Positions 2,555 to 23,166 are shown, counted from the first letter of the stretch. The stretch: 48,304 nucleotides of DNA from an uncultured Clostridia bacterium (GCA_947598785.1 CANQFL010000002.1:1-48304); one strand, 5' to 3'. A program made the numbers and translations. Notes: generated by a model from the letters alone, not told the origin.

Positions 2555-5500
2555 TTATCGGTTTGGGTTAACACTCCAACCAAATGAACCAGCAGAATTA
2601 AGTGCTTCACCAGATGTCCAAGTCATAATCCAATAGTCTGTAATTTCATATTTGAAAACAAAGTAATACCAGAAAGGTTCTGGCATATAATAAGCCTGAC
2701 TTTTAAAACGTGTTTGAGCTTTAACTTCAAGATATATTTCTGAAGTTTCAGTAAAACCACCATTTCTCCACAATTCATTTTCATAGGTTTTTGAAGCTCC
2801 TGATGAACTTGTCGTAAATTTAAATTTAGAATCAGGTGAAGTAATTATTTTAGAAGTTTCATCTACTTTTTCAGCCCAATATTGAACAAAACCTTTTTCA
2901 GAACCTACAGCAGCTCCATATGGTCCATAAAATGCATAACTAAGATCTCTTCCTTTACCTTCAGCCCAACTGTATATTTGTCTAGTTGGAACTCCAGCAT
3001 GTCCACGATCACCTTTAGTTGAACCTATAGGGATGTCCTTTGTCCCTAACATTGAAAAACCATTTTTACCACTATTATAATTAGAGCTTTCTATGTATTC
3101 TTTATTAGAAACACCATCTTTTCCATGTGCTGCACCTTGTCCATCAATAAATGCTCCTGCACTTCCACCACCTGTTGATAAGAGTACATTTTTATTATTT
3201 GAATCAATATAACCTAAGCCTCCAACTCCTCCATTTCCACCAAATTGTGTACTGTTTTTATAATTTCCTTTAATATCATCAGCATTTATACCTGGAGCAC
3301 CACCACCTGCACCACCAAGAACTTCTGTTCCATTATATCCACCATTTTTACCATTTCCACCAAATCCAGCAATACTATTTAAACCAACACGTGCATAACA
3401 ATTATTTGTGGATTCAATTTTACCACCTAATTTACCATTTCCACCATTATTGTTTTCTACATCGTTTTCACCATTACGACCTTTAACTGCAGAACCAGCA
3501 ATAAGAATTTCTTGTAATTTATTTTGATTTTCTTCTTTATTATTATTAATACCATTATTAGACAAAGTAACTTTAACATCTTTATCCACTGACGCGTTTA
3601 ATCCCGTAATTGCTAAATAACTTTCAAAATTAGTAACATTTTCTGTAAATTCTGTAAAAGTTGAAAATACTTTTATATTTTTTTCGGAATTTGCAACATT
3701 TCTTAAATTTCCATATAATTTAACATTTGTTATTGTTCCACTATTAGTTTCTATAAATGCTGATATATTTTTCTCTGTAGTCGCAATTCCTGAAATAACA
3801 TCGAAAACAACATCTTGAATTGTATTTTTATCTCCATTTTTTGTGAATATTCCTGCAGTAGTTGAATTTAAATAATTAATTAAATAATCAAAACCAAATA
3901 TTTTTTTATTCAACTCTCCATAATTTCTTTCACCAACGGAAATATTGTTTTCTAAAACAATTATATCTCCATTGATTTTTGCATTTGTAACTGACACTTC
4001 TTGTGAATTGTAATTATAAGTTATATCATATCTATAATCATATTCATATAATTCATAACCACTATCGTCAGGTAATTTAATAGTCCAAGAAGATTCAGTG
4101 GTCCAATCAGTAGATTCCTGGTTTTTATATACCAAATTGCTACAATGGTCATCATGAGAAACATCGTGTGATGGTTCATTACCTGCAAACAAAGGTAAAT
4201 AATAAGTATCGGTTGTATTATAACTATTTTCAACATTTTGTACAGTTTGCATTGTTTTTTTATTTGGTGCTTTTACAAAAACAATTTTATCTTCTGAACC
4301 TTTAACAAATTGAGCAATTAAATCAACAGTAATTTTATTTAAAACTACTGTAGGGTTGTAAGAATCAAAATATTTTATTTTTTCATTTTTCCAATTAAAC
4401 GCTCCATCTTCTTCCCATTCATATTGTACAAATCCTACATCGTTTTGATTATCGATTTTTATTGGTTTCCAAGCTTTAAACTCACCATTATATGAAAATT
4501 TCATTGTTGACTCTAAGTTAATATTATTGGCATTATATACATCATATTCTACTTCAACTGCACCACAATCATAAATTCTATAAGAATATCCTTTTGTGCC
4601 TTGTGTTTTATTTGTCTCTAAATAGAAACAATCTGCTTTACCACAATATGGACATTTTACTTTTTGTTCTTCACCACTTTCATCTGTATATGTAAGGCCA
4701 AATATAACTTTATTAATTTCATAAGTTTCATCTTCAAATGTAATTACATCTATGTCATCTAAATGTATATTATTTGGGTCTATTAATTTTTTATTTTCAC
4801 TTTCTATTAATCCCATAGTTGTTGAAGTTTTATTAATGATAAATTTATCATTAATAGTAATGTTCTTATCTTTTACATCTATAGAAGAATCAATATGAGC
4901 AAAAAGTTTTATTTTAGAGTTATCTTGTCCATCTAGAACAATTATTCTTTCTCCAACAATACTATTGTTATCTTTAATTAGAGATAGCTTTGTAATTTTT
5001 TCTCCAGCATTTATTGTAATTTTTTGAGTATAGAATTGAATTCCACCAACCACTATGCTTTCTTCTCTATTAACTTCATTTTCTTCACTCATATTTGAGC
5101 CATTATATCTTAAATTTATATTTTCACCGTCTTTTTCGACTATAATATTTTGTAAATCTACATTTGGTTCTGTATCATAACTTAAAATTCCGTCTAAACT
5201 TCCAGTCGTGTTAAATTCAATGCTATTTAAGATTCTTGAACCTTTGACATTATAGTAAACATCGCAACCCATTATTTTATCTTTAAAGTTTTGAATTAAT
5301 GTAGCTATATTTTGATTTCCTAAACTTTCATCTTTCACTTTGAAATTAATATTATTTCCTTCTTTTTCTATAATCCAATCAGTTGTCTTATTTACAACAT
5401 TCCAATCATTATCATTATAAGTTAAACTAAACTCATCTAAATCAATTGCAAGTTTATTTGTTTCGTTAAACTTATTTCTTAATTGAGTTAAATCTAAAGC

Positions 5501-8500
5501 GAATCCAGTAGTAGATATATTTTCAAGAGATATGATTATATCTGTATTATATCCTTCTTGTGGAGCTGTCCTATTTAATTTTGCAATTAAATATTCTTGC
5601 CATTCAATAGTTTGACTTTTGACTTGATTTAATTTATCTTGAGTTTTTTCTGTTGAGGAGAATGTTAAATTAACTTCAGCAGTAATCTCGTCTGTAACAC
5701 TATATGTTCTCTCAATTTTTAGTTGTGACTCATTAAAATCTTTTAATGATGATATAATAGATGGTTTTGTTACTGTAATATAATATCTTCCAGAATCATT
5801 TCCACTGCCATTGCAAGTTAATGTTTCTGATTCACCATTTATTGTTAATGTATATACATTTTTAGAAATAGCCTTATTTAATAAATTATCATAACTTAAT
5901 TCCCCTAAATTCGATATATTATCTAAATATATTTTGTAATTATTTTCACTTTCTTCAACATTATTATTTCTAAGTTGAATAGTTGTTATATTAGAAGTGT
6001 AATTAATAGAAGCACTTACTGTAATATTACCTTCTACTGGATTAACAAAATATACTGTTCCTTTAATTGTTAATGAATTGTCATCATTAAGAGTGTAATT
6101 ACAAAATTGATAATCAATTTCTCCACCATTTTGGAATGTTTTTATATCTACATTACGTTTACCAAATTTACCTTCTTTATAATCTCCAATAATAGTTTCA
6201 TCATTTATTGTAATTTCAAATTCTGCACTATAAGGATTCAAAATGGTTGAAAAAGCATTACCATTTTTAATAAATGCAACAGGCATACCATTTACATTAA
6301 CTGATGAAACTTCATCTGTATTATTATAGATTTCAGCTTGTATATCAGCTATTTTAGACTCTATTGACCCACTAGTATTAATATATTTAGTCCCAAATTT
6401 ATTATTTGCTGAACTATAACCCAATTTTTCACCAAATGCTGAATTTAATACATTATCATATTCAGAAAAGTTTACAGAAGCATAATATTCTGTACTTGCT
6501 TCTAAGTTATAAACCTTTCTATTATAATTTTCAAATTCTATTTCATCATTTTCTCTATAATCTTTTAGTGTTATTTCTCCATTTACCCCATCTTTTATAC
6601 CATCTATACCACCATCACCTTTATAAAAATTCTTATTTCCTTCTTTCGTAAATACTTCTGCAAAAGTCAAATCCTTACTATGATTCTCCTCATCCTTTTT
6701 GAATCTATTACTACTATTATAATCATTTAAAGGTTTTGCCAAATATCTAGTAATAGTTTCTGTCATGAAAACCCTTGCTGGAACACCATAAGAATCATAA
6801 CCGTTAAAGTATATTACATCATTTTTGCAATTAAAAATTGCATTAAATAAATAAACATTTTCTGCCAATTTGACATTTTGCATAATGGCACTTCTATTAA
6901 ATGATAAAGTTTTAAGGTCAATAACTTGTCCCATATTTCCATCATTTTTTATATTATCAATTGAAGAATTATTTCCATTATCTGTAACAGAACCATTTGC
7001 ATATCCAAGTCCATAAGCGAAAACATGACGTAATTGATTTGGATTGTAAATCATTGCAAAGTCATATTCCAAAGGGTATGGATCACCCAATACTATTCCA
7101 TTCTCTGCTCCTAATTCATGTTTTTTATTTCTAATTGAATAGTCAACATTTTCAATTTTTCCGATTGCTTCAACAGGACCGTCATTAATATTATTAGACA
7201 AAGTAATTGCACCACTTGCATATCCAAAAATTCCACCTGCAAACAAATAACCTTCTGCGTTCTGATAATTTCCTGTTCCAACAAGCCCAACATTATATGA
7301 ATTACTTATCGTAACAGTTCCTTCGCTATAACCCAAAATACCACCAGAAACAAAGCTTCCACTTTTTTCTTTTGTCTCTTTTGTCTCTTCTATCGCAAAT
7401 GTATATGAATTAAGAATAGAACCATTATTATAACAGTTGTCAAATGATGTTGTTGAATTTATAGCAATTCCAGCAATTCCTCCTAAAATACAATTAACAT
7501 ATTTTTCGTCTGCGTCTGTTTTAGATAAAGGTTTTACACTGTCATTAGTAACTTTTCTCAAAGTCGTTTCATCTCCATCTTGATGAGCAAATTCGTTCCA
7601 ATTATTATATGCGATCCCATTTACAGCAGGAGAAGTAACTGTTTTATCAATAGTTGTTTCTGTATTTGTAGCACTATTAATTAGTTGTCCACTATATGAA
7701 GAATAGGATATATCCCCATTTAATAATTGACCAACAACACCTCCTATAATAAAGCCATTTAAAACTTGTTTTATATTGACAACAGATACAAGACCTTTGC
7801 CAGTTCCTGTCAAAGTTCCAACTAAACCTCCTGCTATATTTTTACCAGAAACATTTAAATTTCCAGTTGCTGAAATATTAGTTAAATTTCCAGTTACAGA
7901 AGATGCTAAAATTCCGTCACCTGTTACATTAGCATTAGTAATGACAAAATTTTCAATTTTAATATCTTCACCTGTTACATTTTTAAATAAAGATTTTGTA
8001 TACCCTGTGATATCTATTTTATGATTATCACCATCAAAAGAATGTGAAAAATCTTTAGATTCGTTAATTTTGTCATCGGTAAGTATTAAATCATTTAGCA
8101 ATCTAAATCTATAACCTGAACTACCCAAATTTACCATTTGTTGATATTTATCAATATTAAGAATTCCAAAATACCAGTTAGTTTCTTCACTTTGTTTTTC
8201 TGTAAACCTGTTCTCAGAATATTTTAAAACATCTTTATAAAATACTTCAGTGTAATTATATTTTGGAATAGTTGTATTTTCTTTTTCTCTAGTATATACA
8301 GTTGGATTTTTCATATAGCCAAATCCATGAGTAGCGTAACCAAAGTTAGTAAATGGTGTAAAATACCACTTTGAGTTAAATATTGTTTTGATATCACCTT
8401 TTGAATTTAAACTATATTGAGATTTAGAACCTTCGTTAAACGACAAAGAAGTAATTTCAGAAATATTCTCTAAATTCCCATTTTTTATAACTTTATCACT

Positions 8501-14500: not shown

Positions 14501-17500
14501 ATAAACAAAACCACTTATATACCCTATTGCATCAATAGAACTTAAAGTATTTTGAAAATTTTTTCTATCTGAACCATTATTTGCTTCTTTTTGTCCTTCA
14601 ATGTAACTTGACTGAATACTATTTGTATTTTGTAATACAAAACCAGCAGTACGAGAAGATGATGAGAGGATTTGGTTATAAATTTGAACTTCACTTACAA
14701 AACAAGCACTTATATATCCACTATTAATTCCTGCAAAACCAGCGACATCACCCTGCCCTTGAATAACAAACCTATGGCCAATGTTTTGAGTTGCAATGAA
14801 ATTAGTTGAGCCATTAATTACAATATGTTCAAAACTAGAACCACCAACACGACTGTTCATGATTGATTTATTGTTAGTTCCAACAAAACCATAAACAGAA
14901 CTTGTGATATCTTCTCTTTGCATTTGATAATAATCGTTGTTAACACCTTTTGTATAACGAACGACTAAACCTGCATAATTTTCATCATTAAGTTTATATA
15001 AGTTGAAATTTTTATCATAATAAGCAACGACATCACAATTATAAATAATTCCGTTATTTTGTAAAGCAAAACCAGCAATATTGACTGTCTTATATTGATT
15101 TGTATTTACAGTAATTTGTCCACCATTATAAATATTAACTCTTATATTTTTCAAAGTTGTAGTTTCAACAATATTATTAAATAAAGCAAGATTTAAAGCA
15201 GATTCAGTTTGAGTAGCAAAACTATTCAAATGGATTGTAAAACCATTACCGTCAAAGCTTCTAATATTAGTTGTAGTTTTTATAGGAGTGTAATTTTCAA
15301 GAGCAATATCATTCATAAGAATGTAATCTTGATTAGTATCATTTGAATTTTCCATTGCAATAAAATCTTCAGCAGTATAAACAGGTTTTGGAGAATCTTC
15401 ATCGGTATAAAGTTCGACAATGATATAGAAATAGTAATCATATACCATTTCAACATCTTGGCAAATGATAGTCGTTCTAAGTTTCATAAGTTGACTACCT
15501 TCGCTATTTCCTGTTACATTTAAATAACTGCCTGTTTCATCCATAGAAACAGTATAAAAATCCTTAGTATTTGTTGTATGATTTGTTGAATTATATACTT
15601 TTGTTGAAATTCCAGAATTTTTATCAACTTCATAAAGTTGTTCAATCAAAGAAAGCTTTTTATAAGAACCATTTTGTCTATCATAAGCATAATTGATATA
15701 ATATTTTGCTTTAGCGTCTTCATAACTATAATCTGTCAAGAAATCATCTTGTTTTTGTTTAATTTCTTCAACAGCTTGAACATCAAAATTGTTATTTTTA
15801 TCATAAATAATATCATTAAAAGGATAATTAATTTTTAAAGCATCACGGTGAGAAATATACGCATAGTAAATGCCCACATTTCTATTTTCACCATCTATAA
15901 CTTCATTTACAGTTCCACCATTTTGAAGACTGATGTTATCTGTATCAATAGTAAAATCGACTAAAATAACAGTAACACGACTATACTTTGTTTCTACTTT
16001 GTTATTGATTGTTCTTTGAACATAAGCATAAACATAGAAGATTCCACTATCTAAACCATTAGTTCCCCCAGCAACTTTAGCATCAACATAAGCAGTAAGA
16101 ACAGAAGTGTAAATTCTTTTTCCATTTTCTGGTCTTTCAGTTGTTCCAGAAAGACTTATATTTGTTTGTGTATGTCTTAAAACCAATTCAGTAAGTTCTT
16201 GTTTTTCATCTAATTCAATCGTAATGGTTGCACTTGAACCTTTTGCTAGTAAGTATGTTGATTTTCCTTCAATTTTTATATTAGCTTCAGCCAAACTGTC
16301 AACATTGATATGAGAAGTTACCTGTTTTAAAATTGTAGAGCCATTATAATAAGTTGCAGTCAAAACAACTGAACTGCCTGTGGTAAATGAACTTGAAAGA
16401 TACATTCTAAAGAAATATACCCCATTACCAACTTTATCATTATTTGAGATATCTACTCTAATTCCATCAACAATATTAGAAGTATATAAAGAAGTTGAAT
16501 AATAACCATAGTTAGAATTATAAAGCAATCTTGATAAAGTAACACTACCAACTTTTGAATCATTTTCAGCATTGAGAGAATAAGTAAGTGTAAAATGTGT
16601 CATAACAGCAAAAGCAGGTGTTGCAGTAATAGCAATAATAGATTCTGAACTTGGTGTCAACACACTTGTACTTGCACTTTCAGGTGTTAAATATAATATC
16701 GAATTAAAAAGTTCTCTATCTTCAATACTATAAACAGAAATAGAAACATTTTGTAATTCTTGAGTTCTAACAACCAAATTTATTTTTTGAACAAAATTTT
16801 CATTTGATTTTTGACTTAAAGCATTTATTAAAATTTTAAGATTTTGGTAATCATGATTGATTCTATGTCTATAATCATCAAAAACCTTAACAGTAACTCT
16901 AAAGTGATATAAGCCTGTTTCAGTAATAGTTTTTATCCAATTAAAATCAATATAAAGGTTTTCATCAACTTTAAATAAAGCCCTATTTTCTTCTTCAACT
17001 TCAATTTGTGTTGTATTTATATCATTATAAGTTAGTCCAATTAAAATGTTATCTTGTATATTATCACTTTTTAATTCAACATCAAAAGTGCTATATTTTG
17101 CTGCTTTAATTTCAATGGTATCTGGTCTTACAATAAGATTTGTTGCTCCTTCAAAAACAGAAACAGCAAAAGATAAATTTCTCATTTCTTTGATTTTTTC
17201 ACCATATTGACTTAAACCATCTCCATTTTTCATGATAGGTAAATTGAGATATAAGTAAGTGTTGATAGTTGTAATGCTATTATTACTATGGCACGCATTT
17301 CCACTCAAAGAGAGAATACTGCTATCTTCAGAAATGATAACATATTTTTCATTATAAGAATTAGACTCATTTGTTATTCCATATTTAATTTCATAGAGTT
17401 GTTCATTAGTGGCTGTTTCAAATCTCTCATATCCGAGTGTAATAGAATTGTCATAAGTATAAACAATTTGTCTTGATTTTGTTCTTTGAAGCATAAGAAC

Positions 17501-20500
17501 ATTTCCATCATCAAGTTGTGTATCTTCAATAGTTGTGATAAGAGAAGGTAAATTATTCAAAATAATTAATTTAAATTGTTTATTTTTTTCATAATTCATT
17601 TTAGAATAAACAGTCAATGTAAATTCAGTTTGATTAATACCTTGAACAATAATTGAGTTAGTTCCAATTGTAATATTTTTGTTATCAGCCATTACAACCA
17701 AACTTTTAGCTTCTTTGTCTGTAATGCCAAACAAATCTGATATAGAAATTGTATTTAATGATAATAATTCAAATTTTTGAACATCAGTTAAACTAACATT
17801 TACATTATAGTAAAACAAAATACCACTTGAAGAATCTGCGCCTACAGATAAAACTTTAATAGGGTCAGTAATATCTTGAATTTTAACTTTTTCAAAATCA
17901 ACTGAAGAGCTTTGTTGAACATTTTTTAAATACATATAACCGAAATTGATAGAATCATCAATAGAAGTCAATTGCCAAATATTTTCATCTAAATTTTTAA
18001 CAACATTTTCCCATTCGCTTCCTGTATTTTGAGATAAAGTAAAGCTTGTGTCACGAATTGCAGTAACTATTTCTGAGATATAAATTTTGGTTGAGTATGA
18101 ATTATTTTTCTTGAAAGAAATGTATGAATTTGAAATAGTAACATTATTATTTGAACCAACAGTTCTTCCTAATGCAGCAGAAGTTGTGCCAAGAAAAACA
18201 AAACTTTCATTTATGGTTGAATTAGAATCAAATGCTCCTATAAATGCCCCTACATAACTAGACACATCTCCCACCAATACACTGTTCAATTCATCTTCCA
18301 TTGAATAAGCATATGCGTAAGAGCCAGATATTCGACTTCTGTTACCGGCCAATCCAACTAAACCACCAAGATAACTATTTTTTCCTATAGTCAAAAAATT
18401 GGTTTTTCCTTCTTGCAATTTATAGAATTCAAATCCACAATTTTCAATTTGTCCAACATTATGTCCGACAAATCCACCTAAATATGAATAGCAGTTCAAA
18501 GCCTTAATATCAAGTCCGAAAATATATGAATTTCTAATAATACCCGTTGAAGTATTGTATCCAACAAATCCACCCACTTTAACAAACTGAGCATCTTCTT
18601 TTAAAGTTGAAGATGAAACCAAAGTGCTTCCGTTATATTTTCTAACACCATTAGAAGAATAATAACCATCAATATATACATTTTCAATAATTCCAGAATT
18701 TCGTCTAGCAATAAAGCCAAGTTCTTCTGAATCTGAAGTTACATTGCCAGCAAAAGTCAAGTTTTTAATCGTACCAATATTCAAACCATTTCTGTCAATA
18801 TTTTTCATGAAACTTTCACTTTCTTCTCCAAGTAAAGTGATTGTTTTATTTCCATCAGCCCCAAAAATAGAACCAGTAAAGCTATCAAAATTAAATCCTT
18901 TCCAATTATTTAAAGTGATATCGTTCATAACGCAATAGTGTTTTGCAGAATCCATTTTTAACAAACCATTTTCATCATAGATTCTGATTGCAGTTTCATC
19001 AGAACTTCCGTCAGCAACAGAAATTTCAATTTTTAAAATTATGTCACGATAATATACTTTTTGACCATTGTTATAAAAATAATTATTTATGTAAAATTGT
19101 TCTCCAGAATCTAAAACAACTAATTTGTCATCATCATGAGTTGAATCATCTGTACCAAAACTACCATTCAATATTAAATCATAATATTTATTAATACTTG
19201 CCAAAGGAATGTAATGAGGAATACCAACTAATTTTCCATTATCTTCAATATATTCATAGACTAAAATTTGCCTACCAGACCTAGATTTAACCATATCATT
19301 TGGTAAAAGATAAAGGTAACCTTGCCCACCATTTTTTTGATTTAAATCAATATGAAGATTAAATGTTTGAGAAGTACTATCTGGAATCAAATCAAAATAA
19401 TTTCCATTTCCGTAATTAGAATGATAGTAATAAGCCAATTTTGTATCATAAGCCTTAGCAGGTGAAGTTATAGTTGAAATAATAAATGATTTTTCACTTG
19501 GGTCATTTGAAGATGTATTAAGGTAAACATCTCCATTGATAGTTTTATTTAACCATGTAACCTTGCTAACACGCATTTCATTTCTTATTTCAATTTGAAC
19601 TTCAGCATCTCTAAAGAATTCATTTCCACCAAAATTTTGAGTATAAGTTATGCGTAAAATATCTACTATTGATTCAGCATCAATATCTTTAGTTGAGAGA
19701 GCAGTAATTCTAAATACCAAGGTAGTTCCATTGTTGATAAATCTTATATTGTCAATTCTGTAATAACCATTTTCTTTAATAGAACCTTCCAAAGAACCTG
19801 TTGTTTTCTCAGTATCAGTTGTAAATTCAAAGCCTTCACTAGGGATTAGTTCTATGTTATTAACATATTTAGGAGTTTGAGAATCAGGTCTAAATGTTAC
19901 AGAAATTTCAACCATTGACCTAGACATATCAGACGAACTTAAAGTTTGTTCAGTGTAAAGAACAACAGTATTTATATTTGGTCTAACATATTTTACAGAA
20001 TAAAAACTTTCTAACGCGAATAATCTAACAAGTTTAATTGGATTGTGATTTTCATCAAAAACATTAAATATTACTGCAACATAACCTTTAAAGTCATTAG
20101 AAGTCAAAATCAATTTATTTTCTGAAATAGAAAAAGGTGTTTCAGGAGTGTTTGCATTTACAAAACTATAAAATGCTTGAGAAACAAACTCAGTTGAATC
20201 TGGTTTGTTAAACCATTCTTCTGCAACGCGTTTAGCCTCGTCCATATCTCCGGTTTCTAAAGAGAAAAGAACAAATTGAACAAACGCATCAAAACTCAAA
20301 TATCTAAATTCTATTTCTCCTTGTAAAGATTGATACTCAAAATTCAATGGTAAACTAGCGCCTGCTTCCAACATAAGTTTAGACAAAGATGAAGAAACAA
20401 TAGGTCCATTATCAATTTTGTTTGTTTCGTTATCAAAATAATAACCTTGGTCAGCATAAGTTTCAACATGAACATCACTAGAAGCTTTATCAGCATTTAC

Positions 20501-22585
20501 AACAGATGCAGAAGTTGCAGGAATAAAAGAATAAATTTTAAAATGCTCAGATGTACGATTTGTCACATGACTAAACCAAACGTCAGTTTGCCCTTCAAAA
20601 TTAGTTCCGACTAAAGAAACAGTAAAATAGACAACAACAAAAGGATTTTCTGCATCACTAATTTCGGCATCTAAATTTCCACTTGTTCGATAAATGAGAG
20701 GTTTAGAAATTTCAAAATCATTATGATTTGAATAATTAAGAGTCAAACCTACAACTTCATTTTGTTTAACACCAGCAGCCAAACCATTGATTTGAACTTT
20801 AAAATCTAAAGAACGGTCAGAAGTTCTGCTTGAAGGAATATAATACTCTTCTTGCATATCTACATAATTTTCTTCACCATCATCGTCAAATTTAAGTTCT
20901 TTAAGTTGAAGGTCCTCGCCTGAAGTGATGTTATAAAGATTAAGATTCAAGTTTGTTCTTGCATTAGGATTTAAGACAGATTCAAATGAAACAACAAAAT
21001 CAGAAATTACAGAACTAAATTTTCCACCTAATTCAGAGCCAGCAGAAATGTAAAGTTCGTAACCATTTGGAATTTTTCTATCAGATTCCCAAGCCCCATT
21101 AACAAAGGAAAAATGTAATTTACTTCCATTAAAATAAAATACAATCAATTCGTCTAAATTATCAACTTTATAACCTTGTCCAATGGTATCAACTTTAATA
21201 TTAATTGTTGAATCTTCAGCCTTTACAACTTCATCAGGGTATAAAATTGGTTTAATCATAAAACCATAGCCACCGTTATAACTTGAATAGATTTCTGCAT
21301 CAGAAATCGTATAACCTTCTTGGTTGGTCAAAACTAAAGATGTAGGGAAATAGATAGTTTGAATTGTAATATCGGTTTCGTTAGCTGTTTTAGGATTTTG
21401 ATAATCATTAGTGACTATATCATAGGCATAATCTTCATAACTAATTTTGAAAGCAATTTTGAAATTGCCGTATTTTCTAATAGAATTAATATCTTGAGCA
21501 TCAATCAAAATGTTGTATGTATTTTTGCCTATCTCTTCATTTCCTTGTATGTTAGGTGTTTGAATATCAAAATATTCTCTATAACCAACAACTCCATGTT
21601 CTGCATCGCTTTCACGTTGCATTTGGAAAAGAGAGCCATCATCTAAAATTTTATAAACAATTACATCTAAAGAAACTTTATAAGATGTATTCAAAACTAA
21701 AGTACCTTCAAGTTTTCCCATATCTTTATCATTTCTTTTTAATTGATATGTAATTTGAGGAGTGACAACTTGATTGTCCTTGTAGATTTGTACATTTTCA
21801 GATAAAACTTCATTGCCTTTCAAATAATCTCCATCAAGTGTAAAACTTGAAATAGTAGAATTTTCTAAAACTTTAATTGAATTTTTGTTTTGTTTTGAAA
21901 GTTCTCCATATACATTTGGACGCATTTGAGAATATGCTCTAAGTTCTAATTCTGATAAATCACATTCAGAATAAACCTTTAAAATATTTTCATCAACGAT
22001 TTCAGCGACTACTTGTCCATTTATAACAAGTTGTTGCATATTTTCATTATTTAAAGAATCGATGAAAGCCCATTTAACATCATTTACATTGACATCTAAA
22101 GGCATGGTATCAAAATAATCTTTAACATTAAGAACTTTATCTACACCTTTTACAGCAAATAAATCAGACCTTTCTTTTCTGTTTGTTTTAACTTCAAAAC
22201 TTGATAACAACGTATAAACTTTAACATTAATAATTTTGCTAAGGGACAAATCTTCAATAGAATAAACTTTAATTTGAGCATCACCACCACTAACTGCAGA
22301 TATGGTAAAAGAATAATTTGAACCACCTTGATAAGTTGCAGTTGAAGGAGTACTAATTCTATCTTCACCACTCAAAACCTCAATTCCAACACCAGCAGAA
22401 GAATTTTCCAAATTAACTTTAACTTCCTTCATGTTTGAAATATCATTAGCATCATCAACATAGTTTGTGTAAATTTCAACATAATCAGTATCAACACTCA
22501 TAGACACCCGATTATCACAAGCTGTCAACAAAATGCCACCAAGCACCATAAAAATACCTAATATTCCAAAAGCAAGTTTTTTCAT
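2555..22585 (-). CDS. Giant (6,676 aa) surface lipoprotein with multiple GLUG-motif beta-helix modules, beta-sandwich-like spacer regions and a glycine-rich/aromatic C-terminus; function unknown
   Basis: Uninterrupted 20,031-nt frame ending in TAA at 2555..2557, while the other five frames are broken into ORFs of 164 aa or less. ATG 22585 is preceded by GGAGG with a 5-nt spacer. The N-terminus MKKLAFGILGIFMVLGGILLTAC is a signal peptide plus lipobox. More than 30 GG[LIVF][IVFA]G turns follow. There is no LPXTG or C-terminal TM. Confidence 0.9.
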   Translation of the reverse strand: MKKLAFGILGIFMVLGGILLTACDNRVSMSVDTDYVEIYTNYVDDANDISNMKEVKVNLENSSAGVGIEVLSGEDRISTPSTATYQGGSNYSFTISAVSGGDAQIKVYSIEDLSLSKIINVKVYTLLSSFEVKTNRKERSDLFAVKGVDKVLNVKDYFDTMPLDVNVNDVKWAFIDSLNNENMQQLVINGQVVAEIVDENILKVYSECDLSELELRAYSQMRPNVYGELSKQNKNSIKVLENSTISSFTLDGDYLKGNEVLSENVQIYKDNQVVTPQITYQLKRNDKDMGKLEGTLVLNTSYKVSLDVIVYKILDDGSLFQMQRESDAEHGVVGYREYFDIQTPNIQGNEEIGKNTYNILIDAQDINSIRKYGNFKIAFKISYEDYAYDIVTNDYQNPKTANETDITIQTIYFPTSLVLTNQEGYTISDAEIYSSYNGGYGFMIKPILYPDEVVKAEDSTINIKVDTIGQGYKVDNLDELIVFYFNGSKLHFSFVNGAWESDRKIPNGYELYISAGSELGGKFSSVISDFVVSFESVLNPNARTNLNLNLYNITSGEDLQLKELKFDDDGEENYVDMQEEYYIPSSRTSDRSLDFKVQINGLAAGVKQNEVVGLTLNYSNHNDFEISKPLIYRTSGNLDAEISDAENPFVVVYFTVSLVGTNFEGQTDVWFSHVTNRTSEHFKIYSFIPATSASVVNADKASSDVHVETYADQGYYFDNETNKIDNGPIVSSSLSKLMLEAGASLPLNFEYQSLQGEIEFRYLSFDAFVQFVLFSLETGDMDEAKRVAEEWFNKPDSTEFVSQAFYSFVNANTPETPFSISENKLILTSNDFKGYVAVIFNVFDENHNPIKLVRLFALESFYSVKYVRPNINTVVLYTEQTLSSSDMSRSMVEISVTFRPDSQTPKYVNNIELIPSEGFEFTTDTEKTTGSLEGSIKENGYYRIDNIRFINNGTTLVFRITALSTKDIDAESIVDILRITYTQNFGGNEFFRDAEVQIEIRNEMRVSKVTWLNKTINGDVYLNTSSNDPSEKSFIISTITSPAKAYDTKLAYYYHSNYGNGNYFDLIPDSTSQTFNLHIDLNQKNGGQGYLYLLPNDMVKSRSGRQILVYEYIEDNGKLVGIPHYIPLASINKYYDLILNGSFGTDDSTHDDDKLVVLDSGEQFYINNYFYNNGQKVYYRDIILKIEISVADGSSDETAIRIYDENGLLKMDSAKHYCVMNDITLNNWKGFNFDSFTGSIFGADGNKTITLLGEESESFMKNIDRNGLNIGTIKNLTFAGNVTSDSEELGFIARRNSGIIENVYIDGYYSSNGVRKYNGSTLVSSSTLKEDAQFVKVGGFVGYNTSTGIIRNSYIFGLDIKALNCYSYLGGFVGHNVGQIENCGFEFYKLQEGKTNFLTIGKNSYLGGLVGLAGNRSRISGSYAYAYSMEDELNSVLVGDVSSYVGAFIGAFDSNSTINESFVFLGTTSAALGRTVGSNNNVTISNSYISFKKNNSYSTKIYISEIVTAIRDTSFTLSQNTGSEWENVVKNLDENIWQLTSIDDSINFGYMYLKNVQQSSSVDFEKVKIQDITDPIKVLSVGADSSSGILFYYNVNVSLTDVQKFELLSLNTISISDLFGITDKEAKSLVVMADNKNITIGTNSIIVQGINQTEFTLTVYSKMNYEKNKQFKLIILNNLPSLITTIEDTQLDDGNVLMLQRTKSRQIVYTYDNSITLGYERFETATNEQLYEIKYGITNESNSYNEKYVIISEDSSILSLSGNACHSNNSITTINTYLYLNLPIMKNGDGLSQYGEKIKEMRNLSFAVSVFEGATNLIVRPDTIEIKAAKYSTFDVELKSDNIQDNILIGLTYNDINTTQIEVEEENRALFKVDENLYIDFNWIKTITETGLYHFRVTVKVFDDYRHRINHDYQNLKILINALSQKSNENFVQKINLVVRTQELQNVSISVYSIEDRELFNSILYLTPESASTSVLTPSSESIIAITATPAFAVMTHFTLTYSLNAENDSKVGSVTLSRLLYNSNYGYYSTSLYTSNIVDGIRVDISNNDKVGNGVYFFRMYLSSSFTTGSSVVLTATYYNGSTILKQVTSHINVDSLAEANIKIEGKSTYLLAKGSSATITIELDEKQELTELVLRHTQTNISLSGTTERPENGKRIYTSVLTAYVDAKVAGGTNGLDSGIFYVYAYVQRTINNKVETKYSRVTVILVDFTIDTDNISLQNGGTVNEVIDGENRNVGIYYAYISHRDALKINYPFNDIIYDKNNNFDVQAVEEIKQKQDDFLTDYSYEDAKAKYYINYAYDRQNGSYKKLSLIEQLYEVDKNSGISTKVYNSTNHTTNTKDFYTVSMDETGSYLNVTGNSEGSQLMKLRTTIICQDVEMVYDYYFYIIVELYTDEDSPKPVYTAEDFIAMENSNDTNQDYILMNDIALENYTPIKTTTNIRSFDGNGFTIHLNSFATQTESALNLALFNNIVETTTLKNIRVNIYNGGQITVNTNQYKTVNIAGFALQNNGIIYNCDVVAYYDKNFNLYKLNDENYAGLVVRYTKGVNNDYYQMQREDITSSVYGFVGTNNKSIMNSRVGGSSFEHIVINGSTNFIATQNIGHRFVIQGQGDVAGFAGINSGYISACFVSEVQIYNQILSSSSRTAGFVLQNTNSIQSSYIEGQKEANNGSDRKNFQNTLSSIDAIGYISGFVYQNSGKIKNSYSNIAITNMPTFASGFVYTNETGAEISLCYSACFIKQTDISQMPFSAISYDGSSLNNGTISFCYFYDIEGEDPTNQMKLESGTKSVTHIGLSNNPQDVFYGFSFASDEDSYDGIWTKSNNGITLVSANKIALSNRSASTDENGVTHVYYNRSIVNLNTMILTDLSYGSIKNPIIIRSAEEFAKATGNAGTIPIASYREYYDNTTVFGNYRIVDNIDLSEIDQDQSGDNKIILTTFEKTFLNGILDGNGFTISNIELGSNKNYENFGLFASLYHARVMNIDFTVKSIHDSQANIVGTLAGTAVNSRIVATSLTLEGRKINDKGYESPIQGNNVVGGLIGMLFGESSLIDVTVTNADVFTSFYDNAKTIYSNKQYVGETLRNLAQSRSSLINNVKQLSYAGGIIGYVDVYDLTSNQYVKYDKSLEMSDYDLIKVHAYDTVNVYAEIAGGLFGYVGDSTYIYDAELKLNSSDGNLNEDGRIINPSYITSKNLFAGGLIGENYGGLFAVSASYSDTIQLEIEQNENAYYQSYASAIRGQQSIFSYTKNDILFSERYNDPLFIGGLVGFMGGGFINVGYSKLNVISHSNQTLAAGGIVGAVGYTKNAFQLTAISNNDIFVNVYFDEVYSSGDLYIDGENGASAGLIGAIGQDTENSTPSIAMKYVMTMNYYSYTGTSTNAKLLGDNSKIDEATRKGLSDNHFMFVGHYLKYNVNSRNDYYKKGEDNTYENVIKTPMSSPVYIIGANNNFYNVTSSFADDISNEMTVGGYYSIQIGSNTNAVNIELNEFGFVKSSTNYTLEKYYNFIKAVHIGTDNMNSMQKAYRRFESYFLSNDWSTNYWQHNQDELFPYIELFETLDIKFWDATIKSTLEVLSDLIQNPQRTVVVRGRINPDDPSNIACQDIDIPNMIANTQENSELLGILNSRKNGNNRNSILGNFKGTLISYNSYMEISGTELGTVKNDSEYGGKVGDDVGIITDRPLCETLDEGSRILDLNIYLVGPSNSEINYSVINSGISSSAIQNVNVTLNSAVSLVAKELEVGDRDSKYAGVFTNGNVTSTSFINTTFTFRNNSEGNGNSEGNINLSSNAEDTDSKLYFGLLAGQIKQENGFNSMVINGLNVVSNSNDSSTVININLNNTCSDLYVGLYAGEISKANEQTGKISISINSLSNININLKGNNEVTGNAYIGGFVGKVTGDIFTFAGSAEATKGGIVINQGIKINSLYAGLAFGQSISNLNISASSIFDLRLSGGIYQTNKDIVTGSAHLGGIVGETIDLSIQSMDMNFSIGCLNDNKLPPQYETLFEQNVYNYNSSIPGESDSIKLSPYIINNINNDNINKENILIGGFAGKINGSASVSGNCNIEGVIDVETKNDKEVDIGGFVGHLMGGFTGQNLIGENSLNISVQSSVSSTGAKSEAKIGGIIGYIPQSEGSVSGENKVEINKDFNEYFKITGNTLLNVPSIKFGGAIGQVGRTNYNIESSSVKINSISFGGTVKIYGNNIGNINGTDGSSDVYVGGIVGQFSDINSQNNISTNSSISNCLTYGDVFIIYPFYVSGSYANEKLLKYNFGGIVGALGTNKDGKSVQINDNSTIMTSFNNRLINKFDDTKKYNVGAIVGKNAESGNYKNNVYSSGVCMAYQVEEGNKDIAYGRVFSDNDKNDSYLGYSSIVAKKDNENIDTTIKEVESKDDILTKFSSLVEETPSGHKLNPYKWNEQSPIFSNENIAGNFHGIKWIALQSSINYKNIGVGEEGRTNAIADNLTNVAFIGNGNTISISDSRTSKIKDEQILGGLVNTLGEKPEAKTNENEIPLSFNIISGLIINLDVKDLDLNTDGDKSLTATYGGVVGKTYSNSFVYGVGVEGTLSVGGKNTQLTLGGIVGHMQGGMINECYSDAEIIYRAKGGNISNEQLTDQGSIAGIANLSDYNNTIKSSYSSGKIKSYVSNDIYSIAGWSDNSNLPTSSPNIKSDIIDCYSISNIEINDFINDITKGDIKAIYESDKVIKNGNLENISEITSLSFNEGSKSQYSLNSKGDIKTIFNSKWYFTPFTNFGYATHGFGYMKNPTVYTREKENTTIPKYNYTEVFYKDVLKYSENRFTEKQSEETNWYFGILNIDKYQQMVNLGSSGYRFRLLNDLILTDDKINESKDFSHSFDGDNHKIDITGYTKSLFKNVTGEDIKIENFVITNANVTGDGILASSVTGNLTNISATGNLNVSGKNIAGGLVGTLTGTGKGLVSVVNIKQVLNGFIIGGVVGQLLNGDISYSSYSGQLINSATNTETTIDKTVTSPAVNGIAYNNWNEFAHQDGDETTLRKVTNDSVKPLSKTDADEKYVNCILGGIAGIAINSTTSFDNCYNNGSILNSYTFAIEETKETKEKSGSFVSGGILGYSEGTVTISNSYNVGLVGTGNYQNAEGYLFAGGIFGYASGAITLSNNINDGPVEAIGKIENVDYSIRNKKHELGAENGIVLGDPYPLEYDFAMIYNPNQLRHVFAYGLGYANGSVTDNGNNSSIDNIKNDGNMGQVIDLKTLSFNRSAIMQNVKLAENVYLFNAIFNCKNDVIYFNGYDSYGVPARVFMTETITRYLAKPLNDYNSSNRFKKDEENHSKDLTFAEVFTKEGNKNFYKGDGGIDGIKDGVNGEITLKDYRENDEIEFENYNRKVYNLEASTEYYASVNFSEYDNVLNSAFGEKLGYSSANNKFGTKYINTSGSIESKIADIQAEIYNNTDEVSSVNVNGMPVAFIKNGNAFSTILNPYSAEFEITINDETIIGDYKEGKFGKRNVDIKTFQNGGEIDYQFCNYTLNDDNSLTIKGTVYFVNPVEGNITVSASINYTSNITTIQLRNNNVEESENNYKIYLDNISNLGELSYDNLLNKAISKNVYTLTINGESETLTCNGSGNDSGRYYITVTKPSIISSLKDFNESQLKIERTYSVTDEITAEVNLTFSSTEKTQDKLNQVKSQTIEWQEYLIAKLNRTAPQEGYNTDIIISLENISTTGFALDLTQLRNKFNETNKLAIDLDEFSLTYNDNDWNVVNKTTDWIIEKEGNNINFKVKDESLGNQNIATLIQNFKDKIMGCDVYYNVKGSRILNSIEFNTTGSLDGILSYDTEPNVDLQNIIVEKDGENINLRYNGSNMSEENEVNREESIVVGGIQFYTQKITINAGEKITKLSLIKDNNSIVGERIIVLDGQDNSKIKLFAHIDSSIDVKDKNITINDKFIINKTSTTMGLIESENKKLIDPNNIHLDDIDVITFEDETYEINKVIFGLTYTDESGEEQKVKCPYCGKADCFYLETNKTQGTKGYSYRIYDCGAVEVEYDVYNANNINLESTMKFSYNGEFKAWKPIKIDNQNDVGFVQYEWEEDGAFNWKNEKIKYFDSYNPTVVLNKITVDLIAQFVKGSEDKIVFVKAPNKKTMQTVQNVENSYNTTDTYYLPLFAGNEPSHDVSHDDHCSNLVYKNQESTDWTTESSWTIKLPDDSGYELYEYDYRYDITYNYNSQEVSVTNAKINGDIIVLENNISVGERNYGELNKKIFGFDYLINYLNSTTAGIFTKNGDKNTIQDVVFDVISGIATTEKNISAFIETNSGTITNVKLYGNLRNVANSEKNIKVFSTFTEFTENVTNFESYLAITGLNASVDKDVKVTLSNNGINNNKEENQNKLQEILIAGSAVKGRNGENDVENNNGGNGKLGGKIESTNNCYARVGLNSIAGFGGNGKNGGYNGTEVLGGAGGGAPGINADDIKGNYKNSTQFGGNGGVGGLGYIDSNNKNVLLSTGGGSAGAFIDGQGAAHGKDGVSNKEYIESSNYNSGKNGFSMLGTKDIPIGSTKGDRGHAGVPTRQIYSWAEGKGRDLSYAFYGPYGAAVGSEKGFVQYWAEKVDETSKIITSPDSKFKFTTSSSGASKTYENELWRNGGFTETSEIYLEVKAQTRFKSQAYYMPEPFWYYFVFKYEITDYWIMTWTSGEALNSAGSFGWSVNPNR
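7371..7388 (-). repeat. 9-bp in-frame tandem duplication inside the giant gene (encodes ETK-ETK)
   Basis: TTTGTCTCT-TTTGTCTCT on the plus strand. The protein context is IEETKETKEKSG. Confidence 0.8.
11246..11278 (-). repeat. 18-bp in-frame tandem duplication inside the giant gene (encodes NSEGNG-NSEGN)
   Basis: ATTTCCTTCAGAATT-tcc-ATTTCCTTCAGAATT on the plus strand. Confidence 0.8.
22517..22585 (-). other. Lipoprotein signal peptide (SPase II type) of the giant protein
   Basis: MKKLAFGILGIFMVLGGILLTAC|DNRV: positively charged n-region, hydrophobic core, lipobox L-T-A-C. Confidence 0.75.
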
Positions 22586-22634
22586 AGTCCCTCCTGCTAT
22601 ATTATTTGCAATACTGCAAATTTTTATATAATAT

Positions 22635-22664
22635 ATTATAAATAAATACATACATAAAAGTCAA
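22635..22664 (-). promoter_or_regulatory. Putative sigma-A-type promoter of the giant gene (TTGACT-18 nt-TATAAT)
   Basis: The reverse strand reads TTGACT (22664..22659), an 18-nt spacer, then TATAAT (22640..22635). This sits about 50 nt upstream of ATG 22585. In a very AT-rich spacer such matches can occur by chance. Confidence 0.4.
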
Positions 22665-22870: not shown

Positions 22871-23137
22871 TTAACATTTTTCTTTTACACTGGAATTTTC
22901 GTATTTACGTTTTGTTGAAAGACCTCCCCTAATATGTTTCTCAGAAAAATTTTTATCTAATACTTTTTGTACTTGCCCCATAAGTTTTGTATCAATTTTT
23001 TGCAATCGTTTAGACAAATCATTATGCACCGTACTTTTGCTTAAATTAAAAACTTCGGCTGTTTGTCTTATAGTATTATTCGTTTCAATAATGTAGTTAG
23101 CAGTTTGAATAGTACGTTCTTTTATATAAGCTTTCAT
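22871..23137 (-). CDS. spoIIID: Sporulation stage III transcriptional regulator SpoIIID
   Basis: MKAYIKERTIQTANYIIETNNTIRQTAEVFNLSKSTVHNDLSKRL...HIRGGLSTKRKY matches the B. subtilis SpoIIID pattern as I recall it (M-DYIKERT...VSKSTVHKDL...RGG). The in-track codons GGAGGA upstream act as the SD for ATG 23137. The track start 23149 is probably an over-extension. Confidence 0.85.
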   Translation of the reverse strand: MKAYIKERTIQTANYIIETNNTIRQTAEVFNLSKSTVHNDLSKRLQKIDTKLMGQVQKVLDKNFSEKHIRGGLSTKRKYENSSVKEKC

Positions 23138-23166
23138 CATTCCTCCCATAAAGATATCGATATAAA

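Follow-up and report, generated by a model that had tools for sequence, protein, structure and literature searches.

What does a single open reading frame of 20 kb encode in the genome of an uncultured Clostridia bacterium, and is it one gene at all? The window analysed here, a whole stretch of 48,304 nt (GCA_947598785.1, CANQFL010000002.1), carries such a frame on its minus strand, where it takes up 41% of the contig stretch. A first-pass annotation, made by a model from the sequence alone, had read it as the gene of a giant lipid-anchored surface protein and had left the function open. The gene is delimited by the following features.

22871..23149, minus strand: spoIIID, directly upstream of the giant gene (Pfam SpoIIID, E 1e-32)
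22635..22664, minus strand: sigma-A (sigma-70)-type promoter-like site, TTGACT-18-TATAAT (11/12 consensus matches)
22600..22611, minus strand: leader motif TTGCAAATAATA, which includes the palindrome TTGCAA, after the -10 box and ahead of the ribosome-binding site (positional conservation)
22589..22594, minus strand: Shine-Dalgarno sequence GGAGGG, 3 nt 5' of ATG 22585 (read directly)
2555..2557, minus strand: stop codon TAA of the giant gene (translation)
1769..2515, minus strand: radC-like gene (JAB + HhH), 39 nt downstream (Pfam RadC, E 2e-18)
1737..1764, minus strand: terminator-like hairpin after the radC-like gene (terminator scan)

The open reading frame and its surroundings

ORF calling and translation gave a single uninterrupted frame of 6,676 aa (2555..22585, minus strand) with one terminal TAA. 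Use of the first ATG extends it to 6,698 aa (2555..22651, minus strand). The public gene call on the same contig has a product, P0002, of exactly 6,676 aa. The other five frames contain 396 to 1,045 stops across the 20 kb, with inter-stop runs of at most 177 codons, and the longest ORF called in any of them comprises 164 aa, the value given at first pass. Since the stop probability at the given composition is 0.09 per codon, a frame of 6,676 codons would be open by chance with a probability of about 1e-272. The matching gene call and this figure both uphold the earlier claim of one giant ORF.

Elsewhere in the same stretch, mfd is apparently frameshifted, which points to indel errors or pseudogenes in this assembly. 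An alternative genetic code was rejected as an explanation of the split mfd, because its two parts lie in different frames and TGA serves as a stop elsewhere. Rfam and tRNA scans of the whole window were empty.

Wherever the 5' end of an orthologue was fetched, spoIIID precedes the giant gene, and in L001 the order of M23 peptidase, ACP, SpoIIID and giant gene is identical. The upstream side also holds M23 peptidase (spoIIQ-like) and DUF1779/SpoIIT-like genes. Contigs reaching the 3' end show radC and uvrBA downstream; radC was confirmed by Pfam in L063, and ORFs of matching size (about 250 aa) follow the giant gene in L064-L068. As the 39-nt gap between the giant gene and radC contains no terminator, the two are possibly co-transcribed. 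Judged from these contigs, the chromosomal position of the giant gene is fixed, with spoIIID upstream and, where the 3' end was fetched, radC and uvrBA downstream.

The arrangement TTGACT-N17/18-TATTATAATAT is present in the window and in all six orthologue leaders examined, with the -35 and extended -10 boxes AAATTTGACTT…TATTATAATAT kept upstream of the giant gene. We infer promoter activity of this conserved consensus site, and the type of promoter suggests production in growing cells rather than a sporulation-specific one. Just 5' of the Shine-Dalgarno sequence, the leader motif recurs as TTGCAAATA(T/G)TA in five of the six orthologue leaders. Its count across the window is not above chance, so that positional conservation alone counts; TTGCAAATAATA is possibly an operator or leader element. 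GGAGG is found at the equivalent position in the orthologues.

Anchor, modules and distal region of the protein

The protein translated from ATG 22585 has a mass of 739 kDa and a pI of 4.7. Its most prominent residues are N (10.7%), S (9.5%), I (8.9%) and G (8.3%), and the program count of 33 Cys comes close to the roughly 35 counted by eye at first pass. The reported lack of near-identical tandem repeats was reproduced by several scans: TRF detected none in the gene beyond one 38-nt AT-rich repeat, direct repeats >40 nt were not found at the DNA level, and a tile-versus-tile BLAST for internal protein repeats reached a best E of only 1e-3. By its sequence, the product is an acidic protein, probably of the cell envelope, without a tandem-repeat build. 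From the N- to the C-terminus, it is divided as follows.

22517..22585, minus strand: signal peptide and lipobox, aa 1-23 (N-terminus MKKLAFGILGIFMVLGGILLTAC, lipobox LTAC, Cys23)
19019..22516, minus strand: membrane-proximal region, aa 24-1189 (22-43% identity, no recognisable domain)
17906..19018, minus strand: GLUG module 1, aa 1190-1560 (Pfam Glug PF07581, motifs)
15404..17905, minus strand: inter-module region, aa 1561-2394 (conserved, no recognisable domain)
14006..15403, minus strand: GLUG module 2, aa 2395-2860 (HHalign against module 1)
12326..13903, minus strand: GLUG module 3, aa 2895-3420 (motifs, profile-versus-self matches)
9566..11668, minus strand: GLUG-like Gly-rich repeat region, aa 3640-4340 (weaker HHalign, self-matches)
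6686..8248, minus strand: GLUG module 5, aa 4780-5300 (head motif YRFRLLNDLIL…FDGDNHKIDITGY, HHalign)
3716..6685, minus strand: hypervariable distal region, aa 5300-6290 (conservation profile)
2558..3715, minus strand: C-terminal cap specific to the family, aa 6291-6676 (alignment to the complete C-termini in L063-L068)

The signal, of the form MKK-LAFGILGIFMVLGGILL-TAC, combines a charged n-region and a hydrophobic h-region with a matching lipobox pattern. Most orthologues with a fetched 5' end show M-K-K…L-[LS]-[ATS]-[AS]-C; C23 is invariant, and L052 has the lipobox variant F-T-G-C. Cys23 is predicted to be the lipidated first residue of the mature protein. Processing by Lgt and Lsp leaves lipoproteins tethered via a lipidated Cys on the outer side of the cytoplasmic membrane, and with a Sec signal and a lipobox suited to this established pathway the giant protein should be membrane-tethered via Cys23. 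The Shine-Dalgarno sequence and lipoprotein signal (LLTAC) described at first pass are confirmed, the lipobox being common to the orthologues with a 5' end. LPxTG is absent from all 6,676 aa, hydrophobic segments besides the signal peptide were not found, the C-terminus included, and SLH, CWB/CWB2, LysM and SH3b had no Pfam match in the giant protein or its orthologues. Without LPXTG or a C-terminal transmembrane segment, the predicted N-terminal lipid is the sole visible anchor, as had been stated before, and the protein is probably lipid-anchored at the surface.

The membrane-proximal region (aa 24-1189) matched nothing in Pfam, NCBIfam or PDB, either as a single sequence or as a 13-sequence profile. 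A profile comparison of aa 1-1180 with aa 1560-2400 gave a probability of 2.7%, and homology of the two was rejected. Internal homology of the modules was determined by HMM-against-self searches plus targeted profile comparisons. Module 1 has a head motif at about aa 1216-1250 and GLUG motifs at 1339, 1371 and 1408; Pfam Glug PF07581 matches aa 1337-1357 with E 4e-8 (33.5 bits, cutoff 20.5). Among the 13 orthologues, Pfam Glug was detected in three and Peptidase_M26_N in one, somewhere in the N-terminal half (aa 1-3100). Conservation is highest in module 2 (46-53% identity), which has the head motif YILMNDIALENYTP…FDGNGFTIHLNSF and aligns with module 1 in HHalign at a probability of 97.6% (E 3.9e-12); for module 5 the corresponding values are 97.0% and 1.1e-10. 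In module 3, a head motif at aa 2913-2955 is accompanied by seven G[LIV][IVF]G motifs from 3039 to 3343, and profile-versus-self matches tie aa 3080-3380 to the other modules. The similarity of aa 3640-4340 to module 1 is weaker (probability 75%, E 2.5e-5); here GG[IV][IV]G occurs each 35-95 residues with invariant GG..G columns and without a canonical head motif. Head motifs of the modules are positioned at aa 1240, 2445, 2949 and 4851. In addition, the 13-sequence profile matched PDB 3n6z_A over aa 4806-5058 (E 1.2e-4), a borderline match that was lost with a re-made sub-alignment, and the alignment displays the head motif and GGIAG repeats. According to these profile comparisons, the protein contains at least four highly diverged modules of the GLUG / IgA1-protease-N-terminal type with conserved segments between them, so that the several strongly diverged GLUG modules seen at first pass, supported by the 33.5-bit Glug match and inter-module HHalign probabilities of 97%, hold.

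In the distal region (aa 5300-6290), identity to the orthologues is only 11-20% with many indels, and tblastn alignments end at aa 5100-5560 in half of the orthologues. A Cys cluster, CPYCGKADC…C at aa 5978-6007, is partly conserved (consensus 'CP…SY…DCG'). The cap comprises, in this order, LYGNLRN, ESYLxxxGLNA, ILIAG, glycine-rich blocks of the GGNG type and a terminal stretch rich in aromatic residues that contains W[TM]SGExLN, and it also aligns with the metagenome fragment P0003. As to the Gly-rich block noted earlier, its composition is as described (22% Gly in aa 6401-6600), but it does not correspond to the Pfam family Gly_rich (PF12810): with the C-terminal 500 aa of this protein and of six orthologues, Pfam gave no match at E<=1. 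The aromatic-rich terminal domain was recovered, with Y, F and W amounting to 25% of the last 76 aa.

Neither Pfam, NCBIfam nor PDB has a match for more than 90% of the giant protein, in which the GLUG / IgA1-protease-N-terminal-type module is the sole element recognised. Single-sequence queries and the N-terminal profile both drew a blank in PDB, as did the NCBIfam search, and Pfam domains of the Big_2/Big_3, other Ig-like, FIVAR and RTX types had no match in the giant protein and the 13 orthologues. AlphaFold2 single-sequence models reached a pLDDT of 31 and 29 (the second for aa 2380-3430) and were unusable. The beta-sandwich-like stretches and the beta-helix fold of the GLUG modules named at first pass stay putative.

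Relatives, distribution and selection

Collinear open frames of >6,170 aa with 33-38% identity were detected in 12 other gut MAG species (GTDB species-level). They are still open at the end of the DNA fetched. The 12 assemblies are independent and range from 33 to 46% in GC. Six metagenome contigs (L063-L068) contain the complete 3' end, and at least 18 relatives are known from genome and metagenome contigs. The labels given by the submitters are Christensenella or Clostridia, and the metagenomes originate from rabbit, mouse, deer and human. A search for orthologues and synteny, proposed at first pass, has yielded relatives in 12 MAG species with a shared neighbourhood.

Between species, aa 1-5300 are conserved and collinear, whereas aa 5300-6290 are hypervariable. 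In the closest orthologue pair, pN is far below pS in each 600-codon window; an exact dN/dS is not meaningful because dS is saturated, and pN << pS was used alone. The first-pass annotation had argued for selection on the whole length and against an assembly artefact. The former is supported by pN << pS in all windows and by the kept length and collinearity, and the collinear open frames in 12 independent assemblies make an artefact an unlikely source of the giant ORF.

A motif scan of the MAGs closest by RecD2 (76-82% identity) did not reveal the giant gene, and the more distant relatives L022-L024 have the same neighbourhood or the same M23 gene without an adjoining giant gene. In a word-indexed protein database, the N-terminal query found one fragment only (P0001) and the C-terminal query nothing. 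An exhaustive HMMER search with aa 5477-6676 against 1.84 billion representatives recovered, besides the query protein, only a cap fragment and a spurious match. No match came from scanning contigs directly with peptides encoded in the window (aa 1-1000; RadC), from an exact look-up of the RadC product or from tblastn against phages and plasmids. The reading as an orphan was dropped after synteny-guided and motif-guided contig scans gave orthologues; given at least 18 relatives in contigs, the near-absence from large protein databases is a coverage artefact. In the distant homologues L060 and L062, Pfam showed at most a sub-threshold Glug match in L062 (17.8 bits against 20.5). On the basis of the sequences compared, the giant proteins are a conserved, previously undescribed family of uncultured gut Clostridia.

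Proposed function, alternatives and meaning

The reading to which we give a somewhat better than even chance is that of an N-terminally lipid-anchored, adhesin-like surface fibre with a fast-evolving distal region. The conserved part would form an extended, rigid stalk, on which the variable region and the cap reach through and beyond the wall of a presumably monoderm cell. The distal part may then touch an outside target, be it a food particle, another cell, or the mucus or epithelium of the host, and the protein would function in the manner of a fibrillar adhesin or contact fibre. The fast divergence of the distal region could result from its facing changing ligands, phages or host antibodies. 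For membrane-bound GLUG-motif proteins of a gut archaeon, adhesion has been proposed, while the function of the motif was called unknown (PMC9723798).

Several known systems invite comparison. GLUG proteins and the M26 N-terminal region (PF07581, PF05342, 3n6z) have the same head motif, Y.L..DI.L…F.G.fDGNGhtI, followed by GG[IV][IV]G…I.N[SC]Y units, and they are surface proteins of host-associated microbes, as proposed here. In contrast to M26 IgA1 metallopeptidases, the giant protein lacks the M26 catalytic domain, HExxH, LPXTG and G5; its at least four to five very diverged modules are placed within about 4,000 further residues of no known family, and its anchor is the N-terminal lipobox. 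The giant extracellular proteins Giant1-5 of Apilactobacillus kunkeei are similar in being host-associated Firmicutes proteins of 3,000-8,000 aa without LPXTG or transmembrane domain, mostly unannotated, fast evolving and read as elongated adhesins with solenoid-type modules (PMC12863079). Those proteins, encoded in a five-gene cluster, are rods of Ala-rich helical repeats that begin with an SRRP-like beta-solenoid and end in an SH3b-like wall-binding part (PMC12863079). Here one gene encodes an N/S/G-rich protein, probably lipid-anchored at the N-terminus, with a Gly-rich C-terminal cap, and none of the searches detected sequence similarity to Giant1-5. Ebh, SraP and Bap of staphylococci and SiiE and LapA of Gram-negatives belong to the same size class and are acidic, extracellular and presumed to be distal-projecting fibres. 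These proteins, however, are built of near-identical tandem repeats and anchored by LPXTG, a C-terminal transmembrane segment or T1SS retention modules, while the giant protein shows no repeats by BLAST or at the DNA level, no LPxTG, and no RTX or Ig-like Pfam matches. Giant genes of gut Clostridia (bioRxiv 10.1101/2023.11.21.568195) also stem from the mammalian gut, are very long and are thought to serve in binding to host or prey surfaces; their products of 10,000-30,000 aa or more consist of recognisable repeats (RCC1, Listeria-Bacteroides repeat, YG, dockerin, LRR), whereas the present one is shorter, without a tandem-repeat build and almost domain-free.

A lipid-anchored fibre might instead serve as a protective coat or spacer, a dense steric layer that replaces an S-layer and repels phages, antibodies, enzymes or cells instead of binding a ligand, which we consider unlikely though of appreciable probability. 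The single copy of the gene, its fixed position among housekeeping genes and its strong, conserved promoter of the constitutive type would fit a structural envelope component, Pfam recognised no binding domain in the giant protein or its orthologues, the hypervariable exposed part would agree with phage or antibody pressure, and the giant surface proteins Ebh and SraP shield S. aureus and hinder clumping (PMC4856396). However, self-assembly or S-layer domains (SLH, CWB2) were not found, the conserved specialised cap suggests a specific terminal function, and the gene is missing in L022-L024, which share the neighbourhood, so that it is not a universal envelope element. It is doubtful, too, whether the protein is the founding member of an undescribed envelope class, in which a single-copy lipoprotein fibre, fixed in chromosomal position and under a conserved housekeeping-type promoter, with mostly unseen folds, a new glycine-rich cap and a hypervariable species-specific interface to host, phage or antibody, would be the main outer surface of a gut-Clostridia clade.

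GLUG modules were first noticed in IgA1 proteases, and the Pfam Glug and Peptidase_M26_N matches, the profile match to a PDB chain named 'putative immunoglobulin A1 protease' and the numerous columns of invariant D, E, H, K or R along the conserved part could indicate an extracellular enzyme or scaffold whose GLUG-type modules or other segments act on host glycoproteins or antibodies (protease, beta-helix polysaccharide lyase/hydrolase). This is nevertheless quite improbable, as neither HExxH nor HxxEH occurs anywhere in the 6,676 aa, Pfam and NCBIfam gave no Peptidase_M26_C or other catalytic family in 13 orthologues, the profiles had no PDB enzyme match, and the M26 part matched is the non-catalytic N-terminal region. 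A sporulation-linked envelope protein, produced during sporulation and tethered between the two membranes or at the spore surface, the latter having been considered at first pass, would accord with the conserved position directly 3' of spoIIID on the same strand and with the M23 peptidase and DUF1779/SpoIIT-like genes upstream; some lipoproteins are active between the forespore membranes. A conserved sigma-A-type promoter of its own precedes the gene, TTGACT with an extended -10 TATAAT, unlike the consensus of sigma-E, K, F or G. The product bears a signal for export and lipidation, radC and uvrBA are the genes that follow, relatives at a greater distance have the same M23 gene without a giant gene beside it, and a 0.74-MDa protein would be hard to fit into the narrow intermembrane space. 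We thus rate this reading as very improbable, and the spore-surface role was not borne out. The succession of 5,300 conserved and about 1,000 hypervariable aa superficially resembles polymorphic toxins, in which case neighbouring cells would receive, upon contact, a variable C-terminal domain carried by a conserved filament. But the extreme C-terminus is a conserved cap and not a variable toxin, the next ORF in six loci has the size of radC (confirmed by Pfam in L063) and is no variable small immunity ORF, domains of the toxin, pre-toxin, Rhs/YD, LXG or PT-TG types were not found by Pfam, and the N-terminal lipid anchor argues against release, all of which renders such an effector extremely unlikely. 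That the frame is an assembly chimera or open by chance, and not one gene, has a vanishingly small probability and is effectively refuted: the frameshifted mfd of the same assembly speaks for it, and against it stand the chance estimate, the collinear frames in independent assemblies, purifying selection throughout and the lack of repeats able to mislead an assembler.

If the giant protein is simply another adhesin, as the adhesin-like fibre reading would have it, it presents a new architecture of lipobox anchor, diverged non-repeat GLUG modules, variable distal region and Gly-rich cap, yet nothing new in principle. Since more than 90% of it matches no described family or solved structure, the family constitutes a sizeable conserved 'dark' protein space, for which about 18 orthologues are now at hand for structure prediction. 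Two large protein databases suggested an orphan, while contig collections readily yield relatives. For gut clades known from metagenomes alone, keeping the gene at >6,170 aa means a large investment, and the surface display probably decides the location of such bacteria in the gut and how hosts and phages perceive them.

A 20-kb open reading frame and its orthologues

In the complete contig (48,304 bp, about 28% GC), 2555..22651 on the minus strand is one ORF which, read from the ATG at 22585, encodes 6,676 amino acids and ends with TAA. The predicted product, identical to that of the public gene call P0002, has a mass of 739 kDa and a pI of 4.7, is dominated by N (10.7%), S (9.5%), I (8.9%) and G (8.3%), and contains 33 cysteines, close to the 35 or so first estimated by eye. 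In the same 20 kb, the other five frames carry 396-1,045 stops; in DNA of this composition, a frame of such length would stay open by chance with a probability of about 1e-272. GGAGGG is located 3 nt 5' of the ATG, and the N-terminus MKKLAFGILGIFMVLGGILLTAC reads as a textbook lipoprotein signal. Throughout the protein there is neither LPxTG nor HExxH, and no second hydrophobic segment beyond the signal peptide. Scans of the gene for tandem or long direct DNA repeats were negative, and internal protein repeats were not detectable by BLAST. The first-pass annotation had described the uninterrupted frame, the Shine-Dalgarno sequence with its lipoprotein signal, and the lack of LPXTG, C-terminal membrane anchor and long nucleotide repeats; its observation holds in all factual parts.

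Nearly all genes of the window lie on the minus strand and the GC skew is steadily negative; the 48-kb contig contains no tRNA genes and no Rfam families at gathering threshold. The transcription-repair coupling factor gene mfd (29075..32196, minus strand) is broken into two ORFs, of 561 aa (UvrB_inter and CarD_TRCF_RID) and 467 aa (DEAD, Helicase_C, TRCF), which do not share a frame. Their junction at about 30478-30530 adjoins a T-run ('gctttttt atgccc'), and the split could reflect a homopolymer indel error or else a genuine pseudogene. This shows that the assembly is not free of indels, even with the 20-kb frame uninterrupted.

In a large protein database, the sole match to the N-terminus was the 1,876-aa fragment P0001, and an exhaustive HMMER search with the C-terminal 1,200 aa against 1.84 billion representatives gave essentially no match. 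The word-indexed protein search missed the window's own 6,676-aa protein and all full-length orthologues, and since it returned no full-length member the family looked like an orphan. Orphan status was rejected: the scarcity of database matches is a coverage artefact, and orthologues are present in genome and metagenome contigs. On the contig of P0001 the genes are arranged as in the window: LPG-synthase-TM, SpoIIT-like, M23 peptidase, ACP, SpoIIID and finally the giant gene.

Species-representative genomes were scanned in two ways, by the neighbouring M23 protein and by a degenerate motif alignment built from the first orthologues. These scans revealed orthologues in 12 MAGs of other species (GC 33-46%), labelled by their submitters as uncultured Clostridia, Christensenella or Lachnospiraceae and originating from the gut of rabbit, mouse, water deer and human. 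Each carries an uninterrupted frame of 5,350 to 6,290 codons, open to the end of the DNA examined, and for all 12 a single tblastn alignment (33-38% identity) shows collinearity with the window protein. Where the 5' end is covered, the orthologues start with GGAGG and a lipobox signal. Six metagenome contigs with complete 3' ends were added by searching for a motif block around aa 5,100. In each 600-codon window of the closest orthologue pair, pN (0.22-0.44) stays far below pS, which is saturated at about 0.7. Intact orthologues, their collinearity and this pN/pS pattern thus indicate a real, length-conserved gene under purifying selection throughout, in agreement with the selection over the whole length first proposed. 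One orthologue, L001 (contig of 2.8x coverage), is frameshifted at 11800-11860, which truncates P0001; because L059 carries an intact gene of 99.7% identity, the frameshift is attributed to an assembly error.

MAGs whose RecD2 is nearest to that of the window (76-82% identity) are absent from the motif-scan matches; these MAGs (L002-L011, some with contigs of 247-270 kb) form a different set from the carriers of the giant gene (L048-L062). The gene is also missing in more distant relatives which share the M23 neighbourhood (L022-L024), and this confines the family to a clade. Shorter distant homologues of 4,127 and 3,637 aa with lipoprotein-like N-termini were found in other gut Clostridia MAGs (L060:2432-14815 and L062:1667-12580), matching aa 1173-3332 and aa 2399-3213, respectively, of the giant protein at 25-29% identity; the module family thus extends beyond the full-length orthologues. 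The L060 frame is followed by an overlapping open frame of 765 aa, possibly through a frameshift.

Diverged GLUG modules and a conserved cap

Searching Pfam with nine overlapping tiles yielded one family only, a 28-residue Glug motif at aa 1337-1357 (33.5 bits, cutoff 20.5). NCBIfam and single-sequence searches of the PDB gave no match, and Pfam on 13 orthologues added solely Peptidase_M26_N, in one of the 13. With a 13-sequence profile, the C-terminal half matched one solved chain, 3n6z ('putative immunoglobulin A1 protease'), at E 1.2e-4; this match (aa 4806-5058) is borderline and was not reproduced by a re-made sub-alignment. The alignment comprises a head motif (Y.l..DiDm…fDGdgH.I.N) opening the module, followed by repeated GGIAG…I.NCY units. 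The head motif occurs at aa 1240, 2445, 2949 and 4851; G[LIV][IVF]G motifs cluster behind each head and again at aa 3888-4269. Profiles from the orthologue alignments linked most of these regions to module 1 (aa 1190-1560):

Regions of the giant protein related to GLUG module 1
aa 2395-2860, module 2: HHalign with module 1, probability 97.6%, E 3.9e-12
aa 2895-3420, module 3: assigned from head motif and profile-against-self matches
aa 3640-4340: HHalign with module 1, probability 75%, E 2.5e-5
aa 4780-5300, module 5: HHalign with module 1, probability 97.0%, E 1.1e-10

The protein thus carries a single type of GLUG module in at least four and probably five copies, diverged beyond the reach of BLAST; several strongly diverged GLUG modules had been suspected from the sequence. 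The intervening regions (aa 24-1189, 1561-2394, 3420-3640 and 4340-4780) are conserved and match nothing in domain searches; profile comparison found no homology between aa 1-1180 and aa 1560-2400. Single-sequence AlphaFold2 models reached a pLDDT of 31 (aa 5600-6676) and 29 (aa 2380-3430) and lend no confirmation to any fold, the beta-sandwich and beta-helix of the first-pass annotation included.

From aa 1 to about 5300, identity to the orthologues is 22-57%; it peaks at aa 2400-3000, in module 2 and the module 3 head, and again at aa 3200-3300. The following stretch, aa 5300-6290, is hypervariable (11-20% identity, many indels). In the last ~385 residues, the cap, relatedness is recognisable again across the family through LYGNLRN, ESYxxVxxLDA, ILIAGNG and GGNG-rich blocks and an aromatic-rich end with W[TM]SGExLN, which bears out the glycine-rich block and aromatic terminus noticed initially. 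P0003, a metagenome fragment of 350 aa, represents such a cap. At E<=1 the cap matched nothing in Pfam, not even Gly_rich.

Promoter and gene neighbourhood

Upstream of the giant gene, the window and all six inspected orthologue leaders keep AAATTTGACTT-N17/18-TATTATAATAT, a predicted promoter with a canonical sigma-A-type -35 box and an extended -10 box. Between the -10 box and the ribosome-binding site lies a leader motif (TTGCAAATATTA / TTGCAAATA(T/A)TA, window 22600..22611, minus strand), found directly 5' of the Shine-Dalgarno sequence in five of the six orthologue leaders (L016, L017, L020, L021, L001). It includes the palindrome TTGCAA, and its count over the whole window is not above chance. 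The motif could be an operator for some regulator or a leader RNA element.

The gene is directly preceded by spoIIID and followed after 39 nt by radC, with no terminator between and a terminator-like hairpin behind radC. An ORF of ~250 aa likewise follows the giant gene in the six contigs with complete 3' ends; in one (L063) it was confirmed as radC, followed by uvrB and uvrA. The giant gene has no neighbours for secretion, glycosylation or sortases. Between the genes for a SpoIIQ-like M23 peptidase and SpoIIID, a position conserved in L001, lies a stand-alone acyl-carrier-protein gene (23246..23542, minus strand; PP-binding, E 5e-18) with no fatty-acid or polyketide genes nearby. Further upstream, ORFs of 637 aa (27082..28995, minus strand, GTG start) and 173 aa (25111..25632, minus strand) adjoin the LPG_synthase_TM (MprF-like) gene and have no Pfam match, and none is on record for their positional counterparts in L001, one of 563 aa that runs off the contig and one of 178 aa.

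Possible function and relation to known systems

We somewhat favour a role of the giant protein as a fibrillar adhesin or contact fibre. This reading builds on features of the sequence, namely an export and lipidation signal as sole anchor, a conserved part of 5,300 residues that includes the diverged GLUG modules, a conserved cap behind a hypervariable kilobase, a conserved housekeeping-type promoter and purifying selection over the whole length. The lipidated Cys23 would tether the protein to the outer face of the membrane, a long stalk would project through the wall, and the variable region and cap would be presented outside the cell.

The closest rival is a steric coat or shield, which shares every one of these features with the fibre and which we regard as considerably less probable. 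An enzyme is improbable, given that no catalytic motif or family was found, and a sporulation protein marginally more so: the spore-surface role considered in the first-pass annotation is opposed by the sigma-A-type promoter and the housekeeping neighbours radC, uvrB and uvrA. Conservation of both the cap and the downstream radC leaves very little room for a polymorphic toxin, and an artefact is effectively excluded.

The GLUG family is the only one to which the protein could be assigned; its function is unknown, and a role in adhesion has been proposed for gut archaea (PMC9723798). Without HExxH and an M26_C domain it is not an M26 protease, and it lacks the tested defining feature of LPXTG adhesins (LPxTG), repeat-built giant adhesins, S-layer proteins and polymorphic toxins, and thus belongs to none of these. 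Giant1-5 of Apilactobacillus (PMC12863079) resemble it in kind, being giant extracellular proteins that host-associated Firmicutes make without LPXTG and that are for the most part unannotated. Their composition, the end by which they are anchored and their types of module are different, and no similarity in sequence was found. The giant Clostridia genes of bioRxiv 10.1101/2023.11.21.568195 are far larger and far more repetitive.

The giant predicted lipoproteins form a genuine, conserved and uncharacterised family with an architecture new among giant bacterial surface proteins. A giant surface protein without assigned function is not surprising per se; what makes the family interesting is the amount of dark yet conserved sequence that it represents in uncultured gut Clostridia, and the number of orthologues is now sufficient for proper modelling.
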